Positions 31,507 through 38,628 of a DNA stretch of 51,864 nt are shown here, piece by piece. The notes beneath the pieces are model-generated. The model was given only the letters and a program-made list of their open reading frames with translations. It did no database searches and was not told where the DNA came from. A program made the position numbers and the translations under genes. The stretch is from Lachnospiraceae bacterium (GTDB lineage: Bacteria > Bacillota > Clostridia > Lachnospirales > Lachnospiraceae): NCBI GenBank assembly GCA_022771765.1, contig JALELN010000043.1, forward strand, positions 1 through 51,864, written 5' to 3'. Every line of letters starts with the position of its first letter. The stretch's first letter is position 1.

Positions 31507-32892
31507 TTATTTTGCAGATAAATACTCATCAATTCCCTTTGCAGCAGCCTTTCCCGCACCCATTGCAAGAATAACGGTTGCTGCTCCGGTCACTGCATCA
31601 CCACCGGCATACACGCCCGCTTTTGAGGTAGCCCCGGTGTCCTCAGCAGCCACAATACATTTTCTCCGGTTAATCTCCAGACCCTTTGTCGTAGAAGAGA
31701 TCAACGGGTTCGGCGAAGTACCGAGAGACATGATCACCGTGTCTGCCTCAATCTCATACTCTGATCCCGGAATTTCAACCGGACTTCTTCTTCCGGACTC
31801 ATCCGGCTCACCAAGCTCCATCTTGATAATCTTAATACCCTTGACCCAGCCGTTCTCATCCACAAGAATCTCAGTCGGATTCTGGAGCAGATCAAAAATA
31901 ATGCCCTCCTCCTTTGCGTGATGAACTTCCTCCACACGGGCGGGAAGCTCTGCCTCACCACGACGGTAAACAACATGTACTTCCGCCCCGAGACGAAGCG
32001 CGGTTCTTGCCGCATCCATAGCAACATTACCGCCACCGACAACAACGACCTTCTTGCCGCGGCTGATCGGCGTATCATAATCATCCTTAAACGCCTTCAT
32101 CAGATTATTTCTGGTTAAAAACTCATTGGCAGAGAACACGCCATTTGCCTGCTCGCCGGGAATGCCCATAAATCTGGGAAGTCCTGCACCGGATCCGATA
32201 AAGACAGCCTCAAAACCTTCCTTCTCGATCAACTCATCAATCGTTGTGGACTTTCCGATGACAACATTTGTCTCGATCTTAACACCCAATGATTTTACGT
32301 TTTCCACCTCTGCAGCTACGACCTTTGTCTTCGGTAAACGGAATTCCGGAATACCATAGCTGAGCACACCGCCGGCCTCATGCAGTGCCTCAAAGATGGT
32401 CACTTCATAACCGAGCTTTGCCAAATCTCCGGCGCAGGTCAGTCCTGCCGGGCCGGAACCGATGACAGCAACCTTATGTCCATTCATCTTTTCGGCCTTT
32501 TTCGGTTTAATTCCGTTCTCCCTTGCCCAGTCAGCCACAAAACGCTCCAGCTTTCCGATGGATACCGGATCACCCTTAATACCACGGACACACCTGCCCT
32601 CACACTGACTCTCCTGCGGACATACACGACCACAGACTGCCGGAAGTGCCGAGGACTCGCTGATAATCTGATATGCCTCCTCAAACTGACGCTCTTTCAC
32701 TTTCTGAATAAATGCGGGAATATTGATTGAAACCGGACATCCCTGCACACATAAAGGATTCTTACAGTTCAGGCAGCGCTTTGCCTCCTCAACTGCTTCC
32801 TCCTCATTATATCCTAAACATACTTCCTCAAAATTCGTAGCACGTACCTTCGGGTCCTGCTCACGAACGGGTACTCTTGTCATTCCTTCCAT
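31507..32892 (-). CDS. nfnB: NfnB / glutamate synthase small-subunit-like flavoprotein
   Basis: RCLNC..P.C.QGCP, CGRVCPQE.QC, GSGPAG, GGGNVAMD; paired with NfnA-like gene; no gltB nearby. Confidence 0.85.
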   Translation of the reverse strand: MEGMTRVPVREQDPKVRATNFEEVCLGYNEEEAVEEAKRCLNCKNPLCVQGCPVSINIPAFIQKVKERQFEEAYQIISESSALPAVCGRVCPQESQCEGRCVRGIKGDPVSIGKLERFVADWARENGIKPKKAEKMNGHKVAVIGSGPAGLTCAGDLAKLGYEVTIFEALHEAGGVLSYGIPEFRLPKTKVVAAEVENVKSLGVKIETNVVIGKSTTIDELIEKEGFEAVFIGSGAGLPRFMGIPGEQANGVFSANEFLTRNNLMKAFKDDYDTPISRGKKVVVVGGGNVAMDAARTALRLGAEVHVVYRRGEAELPARVEEVHHAKEEGIIFDLLQNPTEILVDENGWVKGIKIIKMELGEPDESGRRSPVEIPGSEYEIEADTVIMSLGTSPNPLISSTTKGLEINRRKCIVAAEDTGATSKAGVYAGGDAVTGAATVILAMGAGKAAAKGIDEYLSAK

Positions 32893-33785
32893 TACTTGTC
32901 ACCTCCACAATGTCCGCAACCGCCGTGATGGGTATCGCCCTCCTCTAAAGCAAGCTTTGCTCTGCCCTCTTCGGTCTTGTACTGCTGCATTCTCTTCATT
33001 GCCTGATCAAAATCAACCAGATGTCCGTCAAATTCCGGTCCGTCCACACATGCAAACTTCACCTGATCTCCCACAACCAGACGACAGGCACCGCACATAC
33101 CGGTTCCGTCTACCATGATCGGGTTCATGGAAACAATCGTCGGAAGATTCAGCTTCTTTGTCAGGATGCAAACGAATTTCATCATGATCATCGGTCCGAT
33201 TGCCACGCAGTGATCATAAGTTACACCCTCATCATACAGTGCCTGAAGCTGTGCCGTTCCGACACCGTGGAAACCAAAGCTTCCATCATCGGTACACACA
33301 TAGCAGTTCTTTGATACTGCCTTCATCTCATCCATGTAGAACAACAGATCTTTCGTACGGGAGCCCATGATCACATCTGCTTCCACACCATGCTCATGCA
33401 GCCATTTTACCTGCGGATATACAGGGGCGGTTCCGAGACCACCGGCAATAAATACAATTTTTTTCTTTCTGGTCTCCTCCAGATTTTCCTCCAGACAAAG
33501 CTCGGAGGGGCAGCCCAAAGGACCTACGAAATCCTGAAATGCTTCCATTGTGTCGATGTCTCTGAGCATGCGCTCTGTAGACGCACCAACAGCCTGAACA
33601 ACAATTGTCACTGTTCCGGCTTCTCTGTCATAGTCGCAGATCGTCAGAGGGATACGCTCTCCCTTTTCATCTGTCTTTACAATTACAAACTGACCCGGCA
33701 GGCAGGACTTCGCACAGCGCTCTGCCTTCACTTCCATCAGGAAGATCTTTTCAGCCAAAATCTCTTTCTTCACGATCGGGTACAT
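32892..33785 (-). CDS. nfnA: NfnA / PyrK-like FAD and [2Fe-2S] subunit
   Basis: PGQFVI, ERIPLT, GGLGTAP, MVDGTGMCGACR...CVDGPEFD. Confidence 0.85.
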   Translation of the reverse strand: MYPIVKKEILAEKIFLMEVKAERCAKSCLPGQFVIVKTDEKGERIPLTICDYDREAGTVTIVVQAVGASTERMLRDIDTMEAFQDFVGPLGCPSELCLEENLEETRKKKIVFIAGGLGTAPVYPQVKWLHEHGVEADVIMGSRTKDLLFYMDEMKAVSKNCYVCTDDGSFGFHGVGTAQLQALYDEGVTYDHCVAIGPMIMMKFVCILTKKLNLPTIVSMNPIMVDGTGMCGACRLVVGDQVKFACVDGPEFDGHLVDFDQAMKRMQQYKTEEGRAKLALEEGDTHHGGCGHCGGDK

Positions 33786-33938
33786 ACTTTTTCCTCCATT
33801 CATCTAATCCACTTATCGCGAGATCGGTTTCTATTTATGCCGCGCGACGGCATATTACTACTATAATAAAATAATGTGACATTTTTTTCAATCCAAATTG
33901 TAAGATTCATCGAAAAAAATGCCACATATTTAAAAAAT

Positions 33939-34529
33939 TTAAAATTCAAACTCATATTTTTCATACGCATTGATAATCGTTGTCGAACCATAGGAATTAA
34001 TCCTCTCATGGTTGACTCCATAATTCATATGCACATGACCGTGAACCATATATTTCGGCTGATAATCATCCAGCAGCTTTTTCAGGCATTCAAATCCCAC
34101 ATGTGTAGGATCCTCCGCGTCTCCCAGACCTCTGGCCGGTGAATGTGTCAGAAGAATGTCAAAGCCACCATTCTTTTTCAACTGTCTCCGCAGTTTTTTG
34201 ATGCGCCGCTCCATCTCCTGTTCCGTGTACTGATCCGGCCCCGGCTTGTATCGAATACTTCCGCCCAGGCCGAGTACGCGTATGCCCTTATAGTTGTAGA
34301 TCATATCCTCCACACATACACATCCACCGGGACTGCGCTTCCCGTGTGTGCGGTCGTGATTACCGTATACGTGCAGAATCTCTGCCGGCGAATACATGCT
34401 TAAAAACTCCAGATAGTCCGGCTTTAGATCACCTGCCGCCAGTATCAGATCGATACTGCACAGATAATCCCTATCCAGATACTCCCATAGAGCTTTGGAT
34501 TCCACATCCGCCAATGTCAATATTTTCAT
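33939..34529 (-). CDS. Calcineurin-like metallophosphoesterase
   Basis: LADVE, AGDL, GNHD, THSP, HGHVH motifs. Confidence 0.9.
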   Translation of the reverse strand: MKILTLADVESKALWEYLDRDYLCSIDLILAAGDLKPDYLEFLSMYSPAEILHVYGNHDRTHGKRSPGGCVCVEDMIYNYKGIRVLGLGGSIRYKPGPDQYTEQEMERRIKKLRRQLKKNGGFDILLTHSPARGLGDAEDPTHVGFECLKKLLDDYQPKYMVHGHVHMNYGVNHERINSYGSTTIINAYEKYEFEF

Positions 34530-34553
34530 AACAGTCCTCTCCCCATGAAACGG

Positions 34554-36485
34554 TTACGATTCTTCATTCTGGGCAACATCCCCTTGCAGCAGTACAAGCG
34601 GTAATGCCTCATCCTTAAGTTCGCTGAAAGAAGGAACCTTTCCCTCCACGTTATCAAGCAGCCAGTCCATCTTCACGATCTCCTTGTGACTCATGTGCGC
34701 ACCGTTCTCCTGCCGAAGCGTTCCTTCATTGTCAATCAATTCTGTATCAAATGGTTTAAACTGTCCCTTTTTGATCAATTCCGTCATCAGTGATACAAGA
34801 CGTCTTGTCTCTGCCGGAAGTTTTCCGGAGCAGATCAACTCAGTCACTCCCGCCGACATTCCCCACCAATAATTGATGGCTCGGTTTTTGTTTGCATTCG
34901 TATCTGTCTTCCATGTATCATTTCTGATACCCTGTATAATCTGTTCATAAAATTTGCCCCAGTGGCAGACAGTCGTCGCGATACTTGTCAGCTTTTCTCC
35001 GTCACGCTCATACAGACCAAAGCGCCGGCTCGGATGCTCCGGAACGATAAAATCCTTATCTGAAATGTAACGGATACCTGCATCCAGACGCTCCACCGGT
35101 TGCACATCACCTTTGAGCGATGACCAGGTCAGCTGAATTTTCGCTCTTGTATTTACCATTTTTGCTCCCAGCGCAAAGGCGTTGATATTGGAGATTGTAC
35201 TGAATATGGGATAATCCGCAATGTAGCCGATTCGCTCCTCCCCTGCCAGTGACCCCGCAATCAGACCAAGCAAAAACTTAGTCTCATACATCCGACAGTA
35301 GTATGTGCGGATACTGTTGTAGGTTGAGTTCGTGGAGCAGTTTAATATCTTGACCTCAGGATGTGCCACAGCGGCCTTCAGGCTGGCGGCGCTTAAATAA
35401 GGGATCGTTGTAAAAATAATCTGGTTACCGTCACTGATGGCCTGCTCCAGTACGTCCATCGGCGAAAACTGATACTCTGCATGATAGTATGACTTCGTCT
35501 GAATCTGGTCACCAAATACTTCTTCCAGATACAATCTGCCCAGCTCGTGGGCATAAGTCCATGCCGATGTTTTCGGAGTCTTTCCGTAGATAAATCCCAC
35601 CTTCAATGTACGGTTTGATGTCCCGTTCAAAAATGAAATACGCTTAATCAACGGAACGCTCGGCTGCTCTGTCGGCTCCAGCAAAAGCTTCACGGATTGA
35701 TCCTGGACCTGTGTCATAAACTCACGCCAGATACGATCAATCTCATTTTTCAGATCATCATTTGAGCGGAATGGAAGTTCCTTGCGCCCATAAACACGCA
35801 AATAAACGAGAAAGGCATCCCCGGCAGTCACCTTCAGATGCTCTCCTCCCTTCTCTGAAAACAGCTGTTCAAAACGCGAAAAATCACTGCGCAGCTGTTG
35901 CCTTTCATCCTCCTCCCACGGCTGTTTCCACGCTTTTCCGTAAAAGCTGCAAAGCTCCTCGTACGCTCCCTCTGTAGAGAAATCGATCATACAGATCTTG
36001 GATGCCTCATAGAAATCCATATACTCGTAATAGATACGATTCTCAAGATCATCTGTTTTTTTAGGGAGAAGACGGATCACGTTCGCCGTAATGCTGGCAG
36101 CCTTCACATATTTCAGGACGCTGACACGCTTGTTGCCTTCCTGAACATAATAGCGTGTCATATATTCATACGCCAAAATCGGGTCACGAATACCCTCATT
36201 CATCTGTGCCTCATAGAGATTACTCCACTTGACCGCAAACTCAGTATCCTCATCCAAAAGCGGCATAAAATTATTTGCAAAAGAATTCTTTCTTGCCGAA
36301 GTCTTTGTACCTGCAACCATATCCAACGGAATATCCACGATACCCAGCGGCTGCTCACCGCAGATTTCATCTCTTGGAACGAACTCATCAAGTGCCGGCA
36401 GATACGGGTACGAACCGTTCGATACTGCCGACCGTGCTGCTTTCTGCGCCATTCTTTTTGCAATACTATAATCTTCTATCGCCAT
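34554..36485 (-). CDS. Fusion of an N-terminal ParB/Srx-like domain and a C-terminal Bmp/PnrA-type binding domain, no signal peptide
   Basis: N-terminal IPLD.V.GT...PI.AY..YYVQEGNKRVSV; C-terminal KVGFIY..AWTYAHELGR, INAFALGA; RBS GAAGGAG before ATG 36485. Confidence 0.75.
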   Translation of the reverse strand: MAIEDYSIAKRMAQKAARSAVSNGSYPYLPALDEFVPRDEICGEQPLGIVDIPLDMVAGTKTSARKNSFANNFMPLLDEDTEFAVKWSNLYEAQMNEGIRDPILAYEYMTRYYVQEGNKRVSVLKYVKAASITANVIRLLPKKTDDLENRIYYEYMDFYEASKICMIDFSTEGAYEELCSFYGKAWKQPWEEDERQQLRSDFSRFEQLFSEKGGEHLKVTAGDAFLVYLRVYGRKELPFRSNDDLKNEIDRIWREFMTQVQDQSVKLLLEPTEQPSVPLIKRISFLNGTSNRTLKVGFIYGKTPKTSAWTYAHELGRLYLEEVFGDQIQTKSYYHAEYQFSPMDVLEQAISDGNQIIFTTIPYLSAASLKAAVAHPEVKILNCSTNSTYNSIRTYYCRMYETKFLLGLIAGSLAGEERIGYIADYPIFSTISNINAFALGAKMVNTRAKIQLTWSSLKGDVQPVERLDAGIRYISDKDFIVPEHPSRRFGLYERDGEKLTSIATTVCHWGKFYEQIIQGIRNDTWKTDTNANKNRAINYWWGMSAGVTELICSGKLPAETRRLVSLMTELIKKGQFKPFDTELIDNEGTLRQENGAHMSHKEIVKMDWLLDNVEGKVPSFSELKDEALPLVLLQGDVAQNEES

Positions 36486-36538
36486 ATGCTCTCCTTCTGT
36501 TACATAACCATGCATTTGTGAGCTTTTGAATCTTACAA

Positions 36539-37486
36539 CTATGAGAAATAGACCAGCTCATCCTCAGGTTTCTCGGCCGGCTTTACCTCAATCGCGTGCA
36601 ACACCGGCCCCTTTCCCTTATACTCCATTGCAAATTCATAAGCAATCTCCGCGGTCACCCACACCCATGAACGGTGTGCAATGCGATCTGCTTCCTCATA
36701 CTTGCATTTGATACCTATAAACTGAATATCTTCCACACAGCAGGTCATCGCAAAACGACCTGCCACAAATACATCACTTTTCAGTTTGCCCTTTGGATTA
36801 TAGACAAGCGCAAGATATTTCACCTTCTTGCCAGCATATTTTTTCGGATTGTCCATGATATCCATGTAAAAGATTCCGTAATCGGCATCTGAGATATCCA
36901 GAAAATCCGCATTAATATCATATGGCAGTTCCTCGTCATAATTCTCATCAATGGATCCGTCCGCCCGCTCATAGACAATCTGTGCCTTACGATTCTTCGC
37001 CTTGACACTACGACGGAATTTTGCTTTCGGTGTATCATCATCACAGCGATTGAAAATCACCACATCCGAAATAAAAAACTGCTCCAGCATCATCATCCGC
37101 ATATTATTCAGATACATCTCATAGGTCGTCGCATCCACAGTCGTGAGTGTCTGCACGATCGTCCATCCATCCGGTGCGTCCAGATCCAAAAGCGGAGCCA
37201 GTTCCCATGTTCCGTTATACTCGATAAACACCTGATCCGGATGATACTGCTTATGAAGCTCATGAAATTTTTCTCTTGTGATCTGGCTCACATCATCGAT
37301 CATAACCAGACTCGCACCAATCGTTGCCAGTCTGGCTTCGTCCAGTTCCACATCACCGTCCTCGCAAAGAATAATCAAAGTCTTTGCATCCTTGCCGAAC
37401 TCATTTTCAAACAGTGTCTCGGAAATGAGCGAGGTCTTTCCGCTGTCCATAAAGCCGGTAAATAAATATACAGGTATCTCTTCCAT
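36539..37486 (-). CDS. Divergent CobW-like P-loop domain fused to a DUF1980/YcgQ-like C-terminal domain
   Basis: TGFMDSGKT, IEYNG, IFNRCD; C-terminal GRFAMTCCVEDI. Confidence 0.75.
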   Translation of the reverse strand: MEEIPVYLFTGFMDSGKTSLISETLFENEFGKDAKTLIILCEDGDVELDEARLATIGASLVMIDDVSQITREKFHELHKQYHPDQVFIEYNGTWELAPLLDLDAPDGWTIVQTLTTVDATTYEMYLNNMRMMMLEQFFISDVVIFNRCDDDTPKAKFRRSVKAKNRKAQIVYERADGSIDENYDEELPYDINADFLDISDADYGIFYMDIMDNPKKYAGKKVKYLALVYNPKGKLKSDVFVAGRFAMTCCVEDIQFIGIKCKYEEADRIAHRSWVWVTAEIAYEFAMEYKGKGPVLHAIEVKPAEKPEDELVYFS

Positions 37487-37512
37487 GTCTTTCACATCTC
37501 CTCACGCCATTG

Positions 37513-38628
37513 CTACGAAAGTAAAAACAGACGCTCTAACTCATCCTCTTTTAAATCACAGCCAATCACACACAATCTGCCGGTATAGTCCGGCTCACCC
37601 TCGCGTAGTTCATATTCACCGGGAACCATATCAAAATAAATCCATCCGCTATCCACGTTCTCGACCATACCTTTTGCACGCAGAATTGTTCCGTAAAACT
37701 CATCGTCGCTCAGCGTTTTTAAGATGCTTTCAATCTCTGTCTTTGTATACTTACGCGGAGTCTCACGGCCCCAGCTTGTAAACACATCATCCGCATGATG
37801 GTGATGTCCATCGTGATCGTGATGATGTCCGCAGGAGCACACACCATTTTCATCATAGTGATGTTCGTGATGCTCATGGTCGTGGTCATGGTGATCATGT
37901 TTCTCGTGATCATCCTCGTGATGGTCATGATGCTCATGGCCGTGGTCATGGTGATCATGCTCCTCGTGATCATGATGATGGTGATGCTCATGCTTTGCAT
38001 GTTCCTCTGCCATCAGCTTCATTTCCAGCGAATCCTGTCCCTCAATCACCTTTAACATTGCCTCACCGGAGATCTGATTCCAGGGAGTCGTGATAATGGC
38101 TGCCTTGCTGTTTAATGCCTGCATCTGTTTCACGCAAAGCTCCAGCTGCTGAGGTGTCGCATTCTGGCTGCGGCTTAAGATGATGGTCGTCGCATACTCA
38201 ATCTGATTGTTGAAAAACTCACCGAACGCCTTCATCTGCTTGCTCGCCTTCGTCGCATTGACCACCGTAATCAATCCGTTTAACGCTACATCCTGTGTCT
38301 TTTCCACATCAATGACAGACTTCATGACATCGGACAATTTACCTACTCCTGAAGGCTCGATTAAAATGCGGTCGGGATGAAATTTTTCGATGACTTCATT
38401 CAGGTTTTTACCAAAATCTCCCACAAGCGAACAGCAGATACAGCCGGAATTCATCTCCGTAATTTCAATACCGGAATCCTTTAAAAATCCTCCGTCGATG
38501 CCAACCTCCCCAAACTCATTCTCGATCAATACCACCTTCTGTCCCTTAAATACTTCTTCGAGCATTTTTTTTATAAAGGTTGTCTTTCCGGCTCCTAAAA
38601 AGCCTGATACAATGTCAATTTTTGTCAT
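37513..38628 (-). CDS. COG0523/CobW-family metallochaperone GTPase with His-rich insert
   Basis: SGFLGAGKTT, ENEFG, GCICC, EPSGV, LRAKG; long His/Asp/Glu tract. Confidence 0.93.
   Translation of the reverse strand: MTKIDIVSGFLGAGKTTFIKKMLEEVFKGQKVVLIENEFGEVGIDGGFLKDSGIEITEMNSGCICCSLVGDFGKNLNEVIEKFHPDRILIEPSGVGKLSDVMKSVIDVEKTQDVALNGLITVVNATKASKQMKAFGEFFNNQIEYATTIILSRSQNATPQQLELCVKQMQALNSKAAIITTPWNQISGEAMLKVIEGQDSLEMKLMAEEHAKHEHHHHHDHEEHDHHDHGHEHHDHHEDDHEKHDHHDHDHEHHEHHYDENGVCSCGHHHDHDGHHHHADDVFTSWGRETPRKYTKTEIESILKTLSDDEFYGTILRAKGMVENVDSGWIYFDMVPGEYELREGEPDYTGRLCVIGCDLKEDELERLFLLS
37861..37980. repeat. Imperfect 60-bp tandem duplication in the His-rich coding tract
   Basis: 37861-37913 matches 37921-37973 with 5 mismatches. 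Confidence 0.8.

Follow-up and report, generated by a model that had tools for sequence, protein, structure and literature searches.

The window analysed here, 51,864 nucleotides (nt) of DNA from a Lachnospiraceae bacterium (contig JALELN010000043.1 of assembly GCA_022771765.1), encodes a protein of 643 amino acids (aa) and, 24 nt past its stop codon and on the same strand, a calcineurin-like metallophosphoesterase of 196 aa. The larger protein carries a predicted ParB/sulfiredoxin (Srx)-fold core, a helical domain and a Bmp-derived C-terminal domain. The conserved unit is the ParB/Srx core together with one subfamily of phosphoesterase. The module is real, widespread and mis-annotated, and brings together known folds in an undescribed combination. 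We favour a role for the 643-aa protein as a sensor-gated phosphoryl- or nucleotidyl-transferase paired with a dedicated phosphoesterase eraser, and place the probability of this at about one half. The core would transfer a phosphoryl or nucleotidyl group from a nucleoside triphosphate (NTP), or a diphosphate, to an acceptor under the control of the C-terminal sensor-type domain, and the co-inherited phosphoesterase would take the transferred group off again. The acceptor or product would not be a protein but a metabolite or nucleotide small enough to diffuse.

A model of residues 1-270 generated by AlphaFold (predicted local distance difference test, pLDDT, 89.1) was compared with known structures using Foldseek and VIA. 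Both searches match the ParB/Srx fold, as the original prediction had proposed for the N-terminus. Foldseek gives five matches at E <= 0.001, each of them to a Noc, Srx, ParB or PadC structure. Eight of the 48,161 chains searched with VIA reach Z >= 5, all over residues ~42-142, i.e. Arabidopsis Srx (Z 8.7; root-mean-square deviation (rmsd) 2.5, 81 residues aligned), PadC (7.2), human Srx (7.1), SerK (6.9), KorB (6.8), SbnI (6.4), pNOB8 ParB (6.0) and Atu1540 (5.5), the last of which we take to be ParB-like. Unrelated chains score Z <= 4.5. Residues 45-142 are thus predicted to form a ParB/Srx fold. Residues 1-290 give no Pfam match above cut-off, ParB_N does not match the 643-aa protein, and Pfam, NCBIfam and PDB sequence searches leave the N-terminal domain unidentified, a profile returning only sulfiredoxin at E 0.4. 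Pfam ParB_N does match distant homologs, and among atlas neighbours it is present in 12-13% of members.

The 643-aa protein was aligned with 96 full-length homologs, and 14 of the 15 invariant columns fall within residues 46-142 (G59, R65, F69, P75, E82, F83, K86, G98, E107, E116, G117, K119, R120 and S122). Conservation of R65, E82, K86, E107, E116, G117, K119 and R120 creates a pattern resembling that of an active site. The EGNKR motif is almost invariant in this alignment and becomes DGNHR or DGHHR in distant relatives; G117 and R120 of its GxxR element are invariant in 97/97 homologs and in 19/19 cores taken across lineages. Two N-terminal motifs had been singled out earlier. Both were located, IPLDMVAGT at residues 52-60 and YYVQEGNKRVSV at residues 112-123, but the spacing from AY to YY in the latter is five residues, not two. 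The AlphaFold model of the full-length protein (97 sequences) has a pLDDT of 94.6 and a predicted TM-score (pTM) of 0.90, and the latter value suggests that the receptor domain packs on the core.

No helix-turn-helix (HTH) or dimerization domain was found, residues 143-265 giving no structural match above Z 4.5 with VIA. The overlap with ParB and Noc is confined to the N-terminal fold (rmsd 13-19 over the full Foldseek alignments), and the ParA-binding motif (L/F/I)G(K/R)G(L/F/I) was not seen on inspection of the N-terminus. Since there is no HTH match, and a separate canonical ParB is encoded elsewhere in the same genome, the 643-aa protein is not a DNA-clamp ParB. Residues 143-265 are helical and have no clear fold match, although a new fold is not thereby demonstrated. 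In the distant relatives L112, L115, P0368 and P0391 this region matches DUF4032 (PF13224) above cut-off; the 643-aa protein is missing ~31 residues of the matching region, and gives no DUF4032 match. A search of the window's genome and of three plasmid records gave no DUF4032 match; of 14 control genomes, those of Thermus thermophilus and Corynebacterium glutamicum gave one above cut-off. DUF4032 may occur together with a kinase-like domain near msiK. We note some variation in this part of the protein. In P0368 the helical region is apparently repeated, with two DUF4032 matches, and in Cetobacterium (L196, 4911-6599) it is extended by ~300 aa that have no Pfam match. Minimal ParB/Srx cores of 125-146 aa, with neither helical nor sensor domain, occur at G041:C59 (L242) and G043:C71 (L241).

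Genomic context was counted in the 80 best among 596 confirmed matches to genomes. The phosphoesterase lies directly downstream of the core on the same strand in 79 of these 80 loci, so that the proposed pairing is indeed conserved; in the single exception (L018) it is 3.6 kb upstream on the other strand. The flanks of the 79 tandem loci are unrelated. The core profile is matched at E <= 1e-28 by 18 of 301 genomes of the phylum, the next-best genome scoring 8e-12. Exactly these 18 also match the phosphoesterase profile at E <= 1e-76, and no further genome does so at 1e-15. The core is present in 21 of 250 scored genomes of the class, all 21 of which have the phosphoesterase; the layout is tandem in 10, convergent in 9 and divided between separate contigs in 2. 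Some of the loci on which the two profiles were built belong to the phylum sample, three genomes were counted in the phylum and the class sample alike, and related genomes are not independent. Pairwise identity of the cores rises with that of the phosphoesterases (Spearman 0.88 over 63 pairs), but this is explained by shared ancestry and is not used as support. No third gene is conserved beside the pair (80 + 80 loci). This, and the tolerance of convergent and unlinked layouts, is why we favour a small diffusible product.

Arrangements differ in individual lineages. The core is unlinked from the phosphoesterase gene of the same genome in G041 and G043. The order is phosphoesterase and then core in Cetobacterium and Tsukamurella, a Rubrobacter plasmid has a short core with no adjacent phosphoesterase, and in Collinsella a Bmp-annotated gene is followed by the phosphoesterase. 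At six loci of one family (L110, L112-L115, L225) the pair, with a 4Fe-4S-fused core, is placed between genes that by eye resemble those for a sugar-binding protein and a sirtuin.

The domain attached C-terminally to the core is exchanged between lineages, and may be Bmp, 4Fe-4S, Lrp/AsnC, USP, a hydrolase or none. Bmp, 4Fe-4S, Lrp/AsnC and USP are ligand- or redox-sensing modules. In 12 distant loci the core ends in a cysteine-rich domain (4Fe-4S Pfam matches in four of six scanned), with the phosphoesterase directly upstream in 12/12. Other cores carry the Lrp/AsnC ligand-binding domain, one of them labelled Deltaproteobacteria; the phosphoesterase accompanies 71 of 80 such metagenome loci, and 61 of the 63 that have at least 600 nt of upstream sequence. 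Thirty-eight relatives are longer, and USP domains are found in 17 of these; one further match is labelled Anaerolineae. In four of the 38 (P0413, P0414, P0419, which also has USP, and P0422) phosphoesterase and core are contained in one chain, and all four score on both profiles. Five other candidates (P0420, P0423, P0424, P0425 and P0426) were not counted as fusions; they look like frameshift joins with low-complexity linkers. Taken together, the conserved core with its resemblance to an active site, the interchangeable sensor-type domains and the obligate partner hydrolase have the layout of a regulated write/erase pair.

The 196-aa partner is matched by Pfam Metallophos (E 9e-10), while NCBIfam scores are below cut-offs. 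It belongs to a distinct subfamily whose members score E <= 1e-75 with its profile and which occurs almost only with a ParB core. We aligned 176 near-full-length sequences, partial matches being dropped; 101 are Bmp-linked (including duplicate loci), 12 come from cysteine-rich and 61 from Lrp/AsnC loci, one is from another type and one is the window's own. Every sequence has D8, D34, Y39, N57, H58, H129, H143, H163 and H165, so that the metal and catalytic residues do not vary. H167 is found in 175 sequences and R176 likewise in 175, and D140 is near-invariant. The calcineurin-like motifs GD, GNH, H and GHxH are all present, and judged on its residues the phosphoesterase looks active. Motif I of the window's phosphoesterase reads D-x-E in place of D-x-H; position 10 is E in 98 of the 101 Bmp-group loci, and V or I in the Lrp/AsnC group. 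The nearest solved relative is MPPED2 (E 0.0055); the match to Dbr1 is non-significant.

The C-terminal domain is of the Bmp/PnrA type, as had been anticipated. Pfam Bmp matches residues 295-455 (E 8e-13), and PDB sequence matches to AtzT (6PI5) and a Brucella protein (3S99) span residues 291-618 (E ~1e-30). These two are also its closest structures, with a TM-score of 0.80 over the target and 25-30% identity. The protein was said to lack a signal peptide and lipobox, and to have no ABC (ATP-binding cassette) permease or ATPase nearby. Export was checked by hydropathy and a lipobox pattern rather than by SignalP, with the same outcome. Within the first 45 aa no 11-residue window has a Kyte-Doolittle mean above 0.33, and among the 97 aligned sequences there is neither a lipobox by pattern search nor a 19-residue hydropathy window above 1.8. 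No ABC ATPase or permease gene was found among seven neighbours scanned, the other open reading frames (ORFs) in 26-44 kb being judged by eye. As a control, five stand-alone Bmp lipoprotein paralogs from related genomes have both a lipobox and adjacent ABC ATPase and permease genes in 5/5. NCBI nevertheless calls the homologs 'BMP family ABC transporter substrate-binding protein', which is the mis-annotation that had been foreseen. Of 7,998 candidates that were scored, 7,613 matched, though plain Bmp proteins may be among them.

The guanine pocket of AtzT is described as comprising Tyr45, Ser97, the backbone N of Phe98, Glu165, Trp194, Asn218 and Asn220 (PMC6834077). The equivalent positions in the 643-aa protein are W309, I361, P362, S429, K458, D476 and D478. 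An aromatic side chain is kept at W309 (for Tyr45), as is D478, while Glu is replaced by S429, Trp by K458 and Phe by P362; the contact to the Phe98 backbone NH is lost in this branch. A tree of Bmp domains was rooted on the five stand-alone paralogs, which keep the pocket Ser, Glu and Trp in 5/5. Twelve first-branching fusions have an acid at 165 in 12/12 and Trp in 9/12. In the other 91, the 643-aa protein among them, Trp is absent and position 165 is occupied by Gly or Ser; the node separating the two groups has a support of only 0.58, and the Trp column lies beside a gap. Both Glu and Trp are missing in 79/79 complete loci of the genome-match set. Lys or Arg takes the Trp position in 77 of these 79, though Lys does so in only 38 of 97 sequences of the wider alignment.

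By these residues the Bmp domain is one captured from a purine ABC-importer lipoprotein. Purine binding is plausible for the early-branching fusions and doubtful for the 643-aa protein, and the suggestion that its Bmp domain senses purine nucleosides is not borne out, Glu165 and Trp194 being lost from all 91 members of the branch. In this lineage a plain purine base or nucleoside has probably ceased to be the ligand, and the pocket may accept an anionic ligand or none. The module thus documents an exported receptor captured as a cytoplasmic domain, with subsequent alteration of its pocket. In the early-branching fusions that keep the pocket (L209, L210, L244, L246, L250-L258) the phosphoesterase is mostly convergent, while the derived branch is tandem. 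Elsewhere (L205 and L206) tandem Bmp-like genes with N-terminal membrane segments precede a large sensor-like membrane protein, which is another non-transport use of Bmp domains.

SerK, SbnI and Srx, the studied members of the ParB fold that lack a DNA-binding domain, are described as phosphotransferases (PMC12704722, PMC5120207), and by analogy with these we infer that the core is catalytic. As for the writer and eraser that were first proposed, the partnership is borne out by co-occurrence in genomes, fusion of the partners and swapping of the C-terminal domain; the kinase or NTPase activity is something we infer, and a probable relative apparently binds no NTP. This relative is a 'ParB-CTPase-bactUSP' protein from an Anaerolineales genome, listed as purified in Dataset S5 of Kaljevic et al. 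2025 (PMC12704722) without an R-to-A control strain. This ParB-USP fusion is not among the 11 NTP binders named in the text of that study, and is apparently one of 17 non-binders. From its architecture and taxon it probably belongs to the family of the core. Either gating by the sensor or a ligand other than an NTP could account for the lack of binding. The same source states that nucleotide specificity is not predictable from sequence (PMC12704722).

Further points weigh against a sensor-gated transferase with its own eraser. A phosphoesterase match, weaker than those in core-bearing genomes, occurs without the core in two genomes of the class (G495, E 5e-53; G413, E 2e-21), and two loci (L146 and L174) have a core with no phosphoesterase beside it. 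An added domain is absent from some cores, and in 9 of the 38 longer relatives it is an alpha/beta hydrolase, i.e. an enzyme rather than a sensor. The receptor pocket of the 643-aa protein, without the equivalents of Glu165 and Trp194, may be ligand-free. In the phosphoesterase the His of motif I is missing (position 10 being E, V or I), making one metal site atypical. The VIA Z-scores are middling, with only one above 8. Finally, the analysis identified no gene for a receptor or target.

In a more specific form of the favoured reading the core, with its DUF4032-like region, would be the synthase of an undescribed nucleotide-derived second messenger or alarmone, switched according to lineage by purine, redox, amino-acid or adenine-nucleotide status, and the partner its dedicated hydrolase. 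We regard this as fairly improbable. If true it would be categorically new, a bacterial signalling system that extends across Bacillota, Actinomycetota, Chloroflexota, Fusobacteriota and Deltaproteobacteria and is frequent among the Lachnospiraceae of the gut.

It is also possible, if somewhat improbable, that the core makes no product and is a nucleotide-gated conformational switch that binds and slowly hydrolyses NTP like ParB, Noc and PadC, with the phosphoesterase making or destroying a ligand read by the switch or the sensor. In the structure searches the scores of PadC, KorB, Noc and ParB are close to those of SerK and SbnI, some relatives are labelled 'transcriptional regulator' in databases, and the partnership data are equally compatible. 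Yet neither an HTH nor a dimerization domain was found, residues 143-265 matching nothing above Z 4.5, and one phosphoesterase subfamily pairs with cores bearing chemically unrelated sensors. Its substrate is therefore more likely to be tied to the core than to the sensor.

A role for the pair in consecutive steps of metabolism or repair, e.g. activation and then hydrolysis of a nucleoside, sugar or damaged metabolite with feedback control by the C-terminal domain, appears unlikely. There is a precedent in SerK, a metabolic kinase formerly annotated as ParB (PMC5120207), hydrolase fusions exist, and carbohydrate genes adjoin the pair in Cetobacterium and Tsukamurella. However, the loci examined for a third gene contain no pathway gene conserved beside the pair, and the added domains imply differing inputs (purine, redox, amino acid and adenine nucleotide).

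We consider it more unlikely still that the pair is a kinase and phosphatase (or nucleotidyl-transferase and hydrolase) acting on a protein, such as the ATPase of a MalK/MsiK-type sugar importer. Srx does act on a protein. In Tsukamurella (L197, 2971-5690) the pair directly follows ugpC on the same strand, and P0424 joins a MalK ATPase to the core, where the probable frameshift still demonstrates adjacency. Against this, a MalK/PotA-type ATPase at E <= 1e-40 is found in only 9 of ~275 loci and in varied orientation, and the solved structures nearest to the phosphoesterase, MPPED2 and (non-significantly) Dbr1, are not protein phosphatases. The MalK link is weak overall; besides Tsukamurella a MalK/MsiK-type ATPase adjoins the pair in few loci (P0424, L261).

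Least probable, and largely refuted, are the readings of the protein as an exported ABC substrate-binding lipoprotein, which is how it is annotated, or of the module as mobile phage defence: the Pfam and NCBI names, a Collinsella ABC permease and ATPase ~1.2 kb upstream (past a mechanosensitive-channel gene) and the frequency of ParB folds on mobile elements are outweighed by the lack of export signals or transporter genes that true lipoprotein paralogs possess, by the absence of a match in 50,697 phage records (query P0329) with only weak partial ParB matches in IMG/VR, and by the presence of the module as a single copy per genome in 21 of 22 genomes of the same genus.

Coordinates of the module and its parts in the window are collected below.

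Table 1. Features of the ParB/Srx-phosphoesterase module, numbered from the first nucleotide of the window
Feature	Position	Strand	Basis or remark
Gene for 643-aa fusion protein	34554..36485	minus	ORF; ParB/Srx core, helical domain and Bmp-derived domain
AGGAG, ribosome-binding-site-like motif	36491..36495	minus	5 nt ahead of the ATG at 36485; sequence
ParB/sulfiredoxin-fold core (predicted), residues 45-142	36060..36353	minus	14/15 invariant columns; structure searches
EGNKR, GxxR phosphate-binding (Box II) motif	36126..36140	minus	Homolog alignment
Helical domain, residues 143-265	35691..36059	minus	Shortened counterpart of the DUF4032-matching region of distant relatives
Bmp/PnrA-type receptor domain, residues 291-620	34626..35615	minus	Derived from purine ABC lipoproteins; pocket remodelled
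GGAGAGG, ribosome-binding-site-like motif	34536..34542	minus	Within the 24-nt gap ahead of the phosphoesterase; sequence
Gene for 196-aa calcineurin-like metallophosphoesterase, dedicated subfamily	33939..34529	minus	ORF, Pfam, alignment

The start methionine of the 643-aa protein is common to 95 of the 97 aligned homologs; a mechanical ORF finder places the start 10 codons earlier, at 36515. A promoter scan was at chance level (17 against 12.9 +/- 3.6 expected). Pieces of both genes are present in four metatranscriptome assemblies, although contigs alone cannot demonstrate transcription; in one of these (X5) all 30 bins are covered, mostly at 85-95% identity. The closest relatives of the protein (71-92% identity) are labelled Lachnospiraceae, Eubacterium or 'bacterium'. 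One genome has, in addition to an intact copy, a second copy of the fusion gene that is disrupted, its pieces lying close to insertion sequence (IS)-like ORFs (G020:C103, L208).

By Pfam scan the upstream neighbours are argS and two CobW GTPases, and downstream is an Fe-S/NAD oxidoreductase subunit; this neighbourhood is shared by no more than 7-11 of the 80 related loci. The tandem CobW-type genes (36539-38628, minus strand) encode one protein with a long His-rich stretch and another fused to a DUF1980 C-terminal domain, and are likely to be a zinc metallochaperone pair. The adjoining CobW GTPase has a sub-cutoff match to TIGR03943, 'putative permease subunit' (67 of 88.8 bits), but the CobW genes are linked to the module in close relatives only (11/80 loci). 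The two oxidoreductase genes (31507-33803, minus strand; 303 and 461 aa) adjoin the module in ~10 of 80 loci; of these proteins the 303-aa one was scanned, and the pair presumably resembles NfnAB/SudAB.

No paper on the combination of core and phosphoesterase was found in the literature searched, which omits most subscription papers, nor was any found there for DUF4032 as a term. The main text and six datasets of PMC12704722 make no mention of Bmp, DUF4032 or a phosphoesterase partner, and a term search of PMC10853773 found no partner terms. The analysis provides a testable role for thousands of proteins of gut anaerobes that are mis-annotated as 'BMP ABC substrate-binding proteins', and for the DUF4032 region. 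The ParB fold is familiar as a DNA-clamp switch and in a few metabolic kinases. A version coupled to a phosphoesterase of its own, with sensor-type domains that can be swapped, would bring the fold into signalling.

We finally compare the module with the systems that most resemble it. The core shares with SerK (5X0B), SbnI (5UJD) and Srx (6KY4, 1YZS) a fold of ~80 residues (Z 6.4-8.7), the GxxR motif and the lack of an HTH or dimerization domain. Identity is however only 14-25%, SerK and SbnI giving no PDB sequence match with either protein or profile and overlapping structurally in the core alone, and the 643-aa protein adds an N-terminal helix and the DUF4032-like helical domain. The motif of Srx with its catalytic Cys is GCHR; that of the 643-aa protein has no such Cys. 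Neither fused sensor-type domains nor a dedicated phosphoesterase is known for those three proteins. The N-terminal ParB-CTPase fold is common to ParB/Spo0J, Noc, KorB and PadC, which are CTP switches, and joining of a ParB fold to lineage-specific domains is seen in the orphan fusions reported in PMC12704722. In contrast to the clamps ParB, Noc and KorB there is no Pfam ParB_N match, HTH or clamp here, and the C-terminus is a Bmp domain.

That domain resembles the Bmp/PnrA lipoproteins (AtzT, Brucella 3S99, PnrA and BmpD) in fold and in the aromatic residue of the pocket, but is fused to a predicted enzyme core, has no export signal or transporter genes and has lost Glu165, Trp194 and the Phe98 NH. 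The partner has the GD, GNHD, H and GHxH motifs of small calcineurin-like phosphoesterases (MPPED2, the YfcE/MJ0936 class and Dbr1), from which it differs in replacing the motif I His by E, V or I and in the additional conservation of Y39, H143, D140 and R176. The helical region of distant relatives matches DUF4032, while that of the window's protein is shorter and does not. For the reading of the module as a synthase/hydrolase pair of a second-messenger system, what the analysis shows is the genomic coupling of the two genes.

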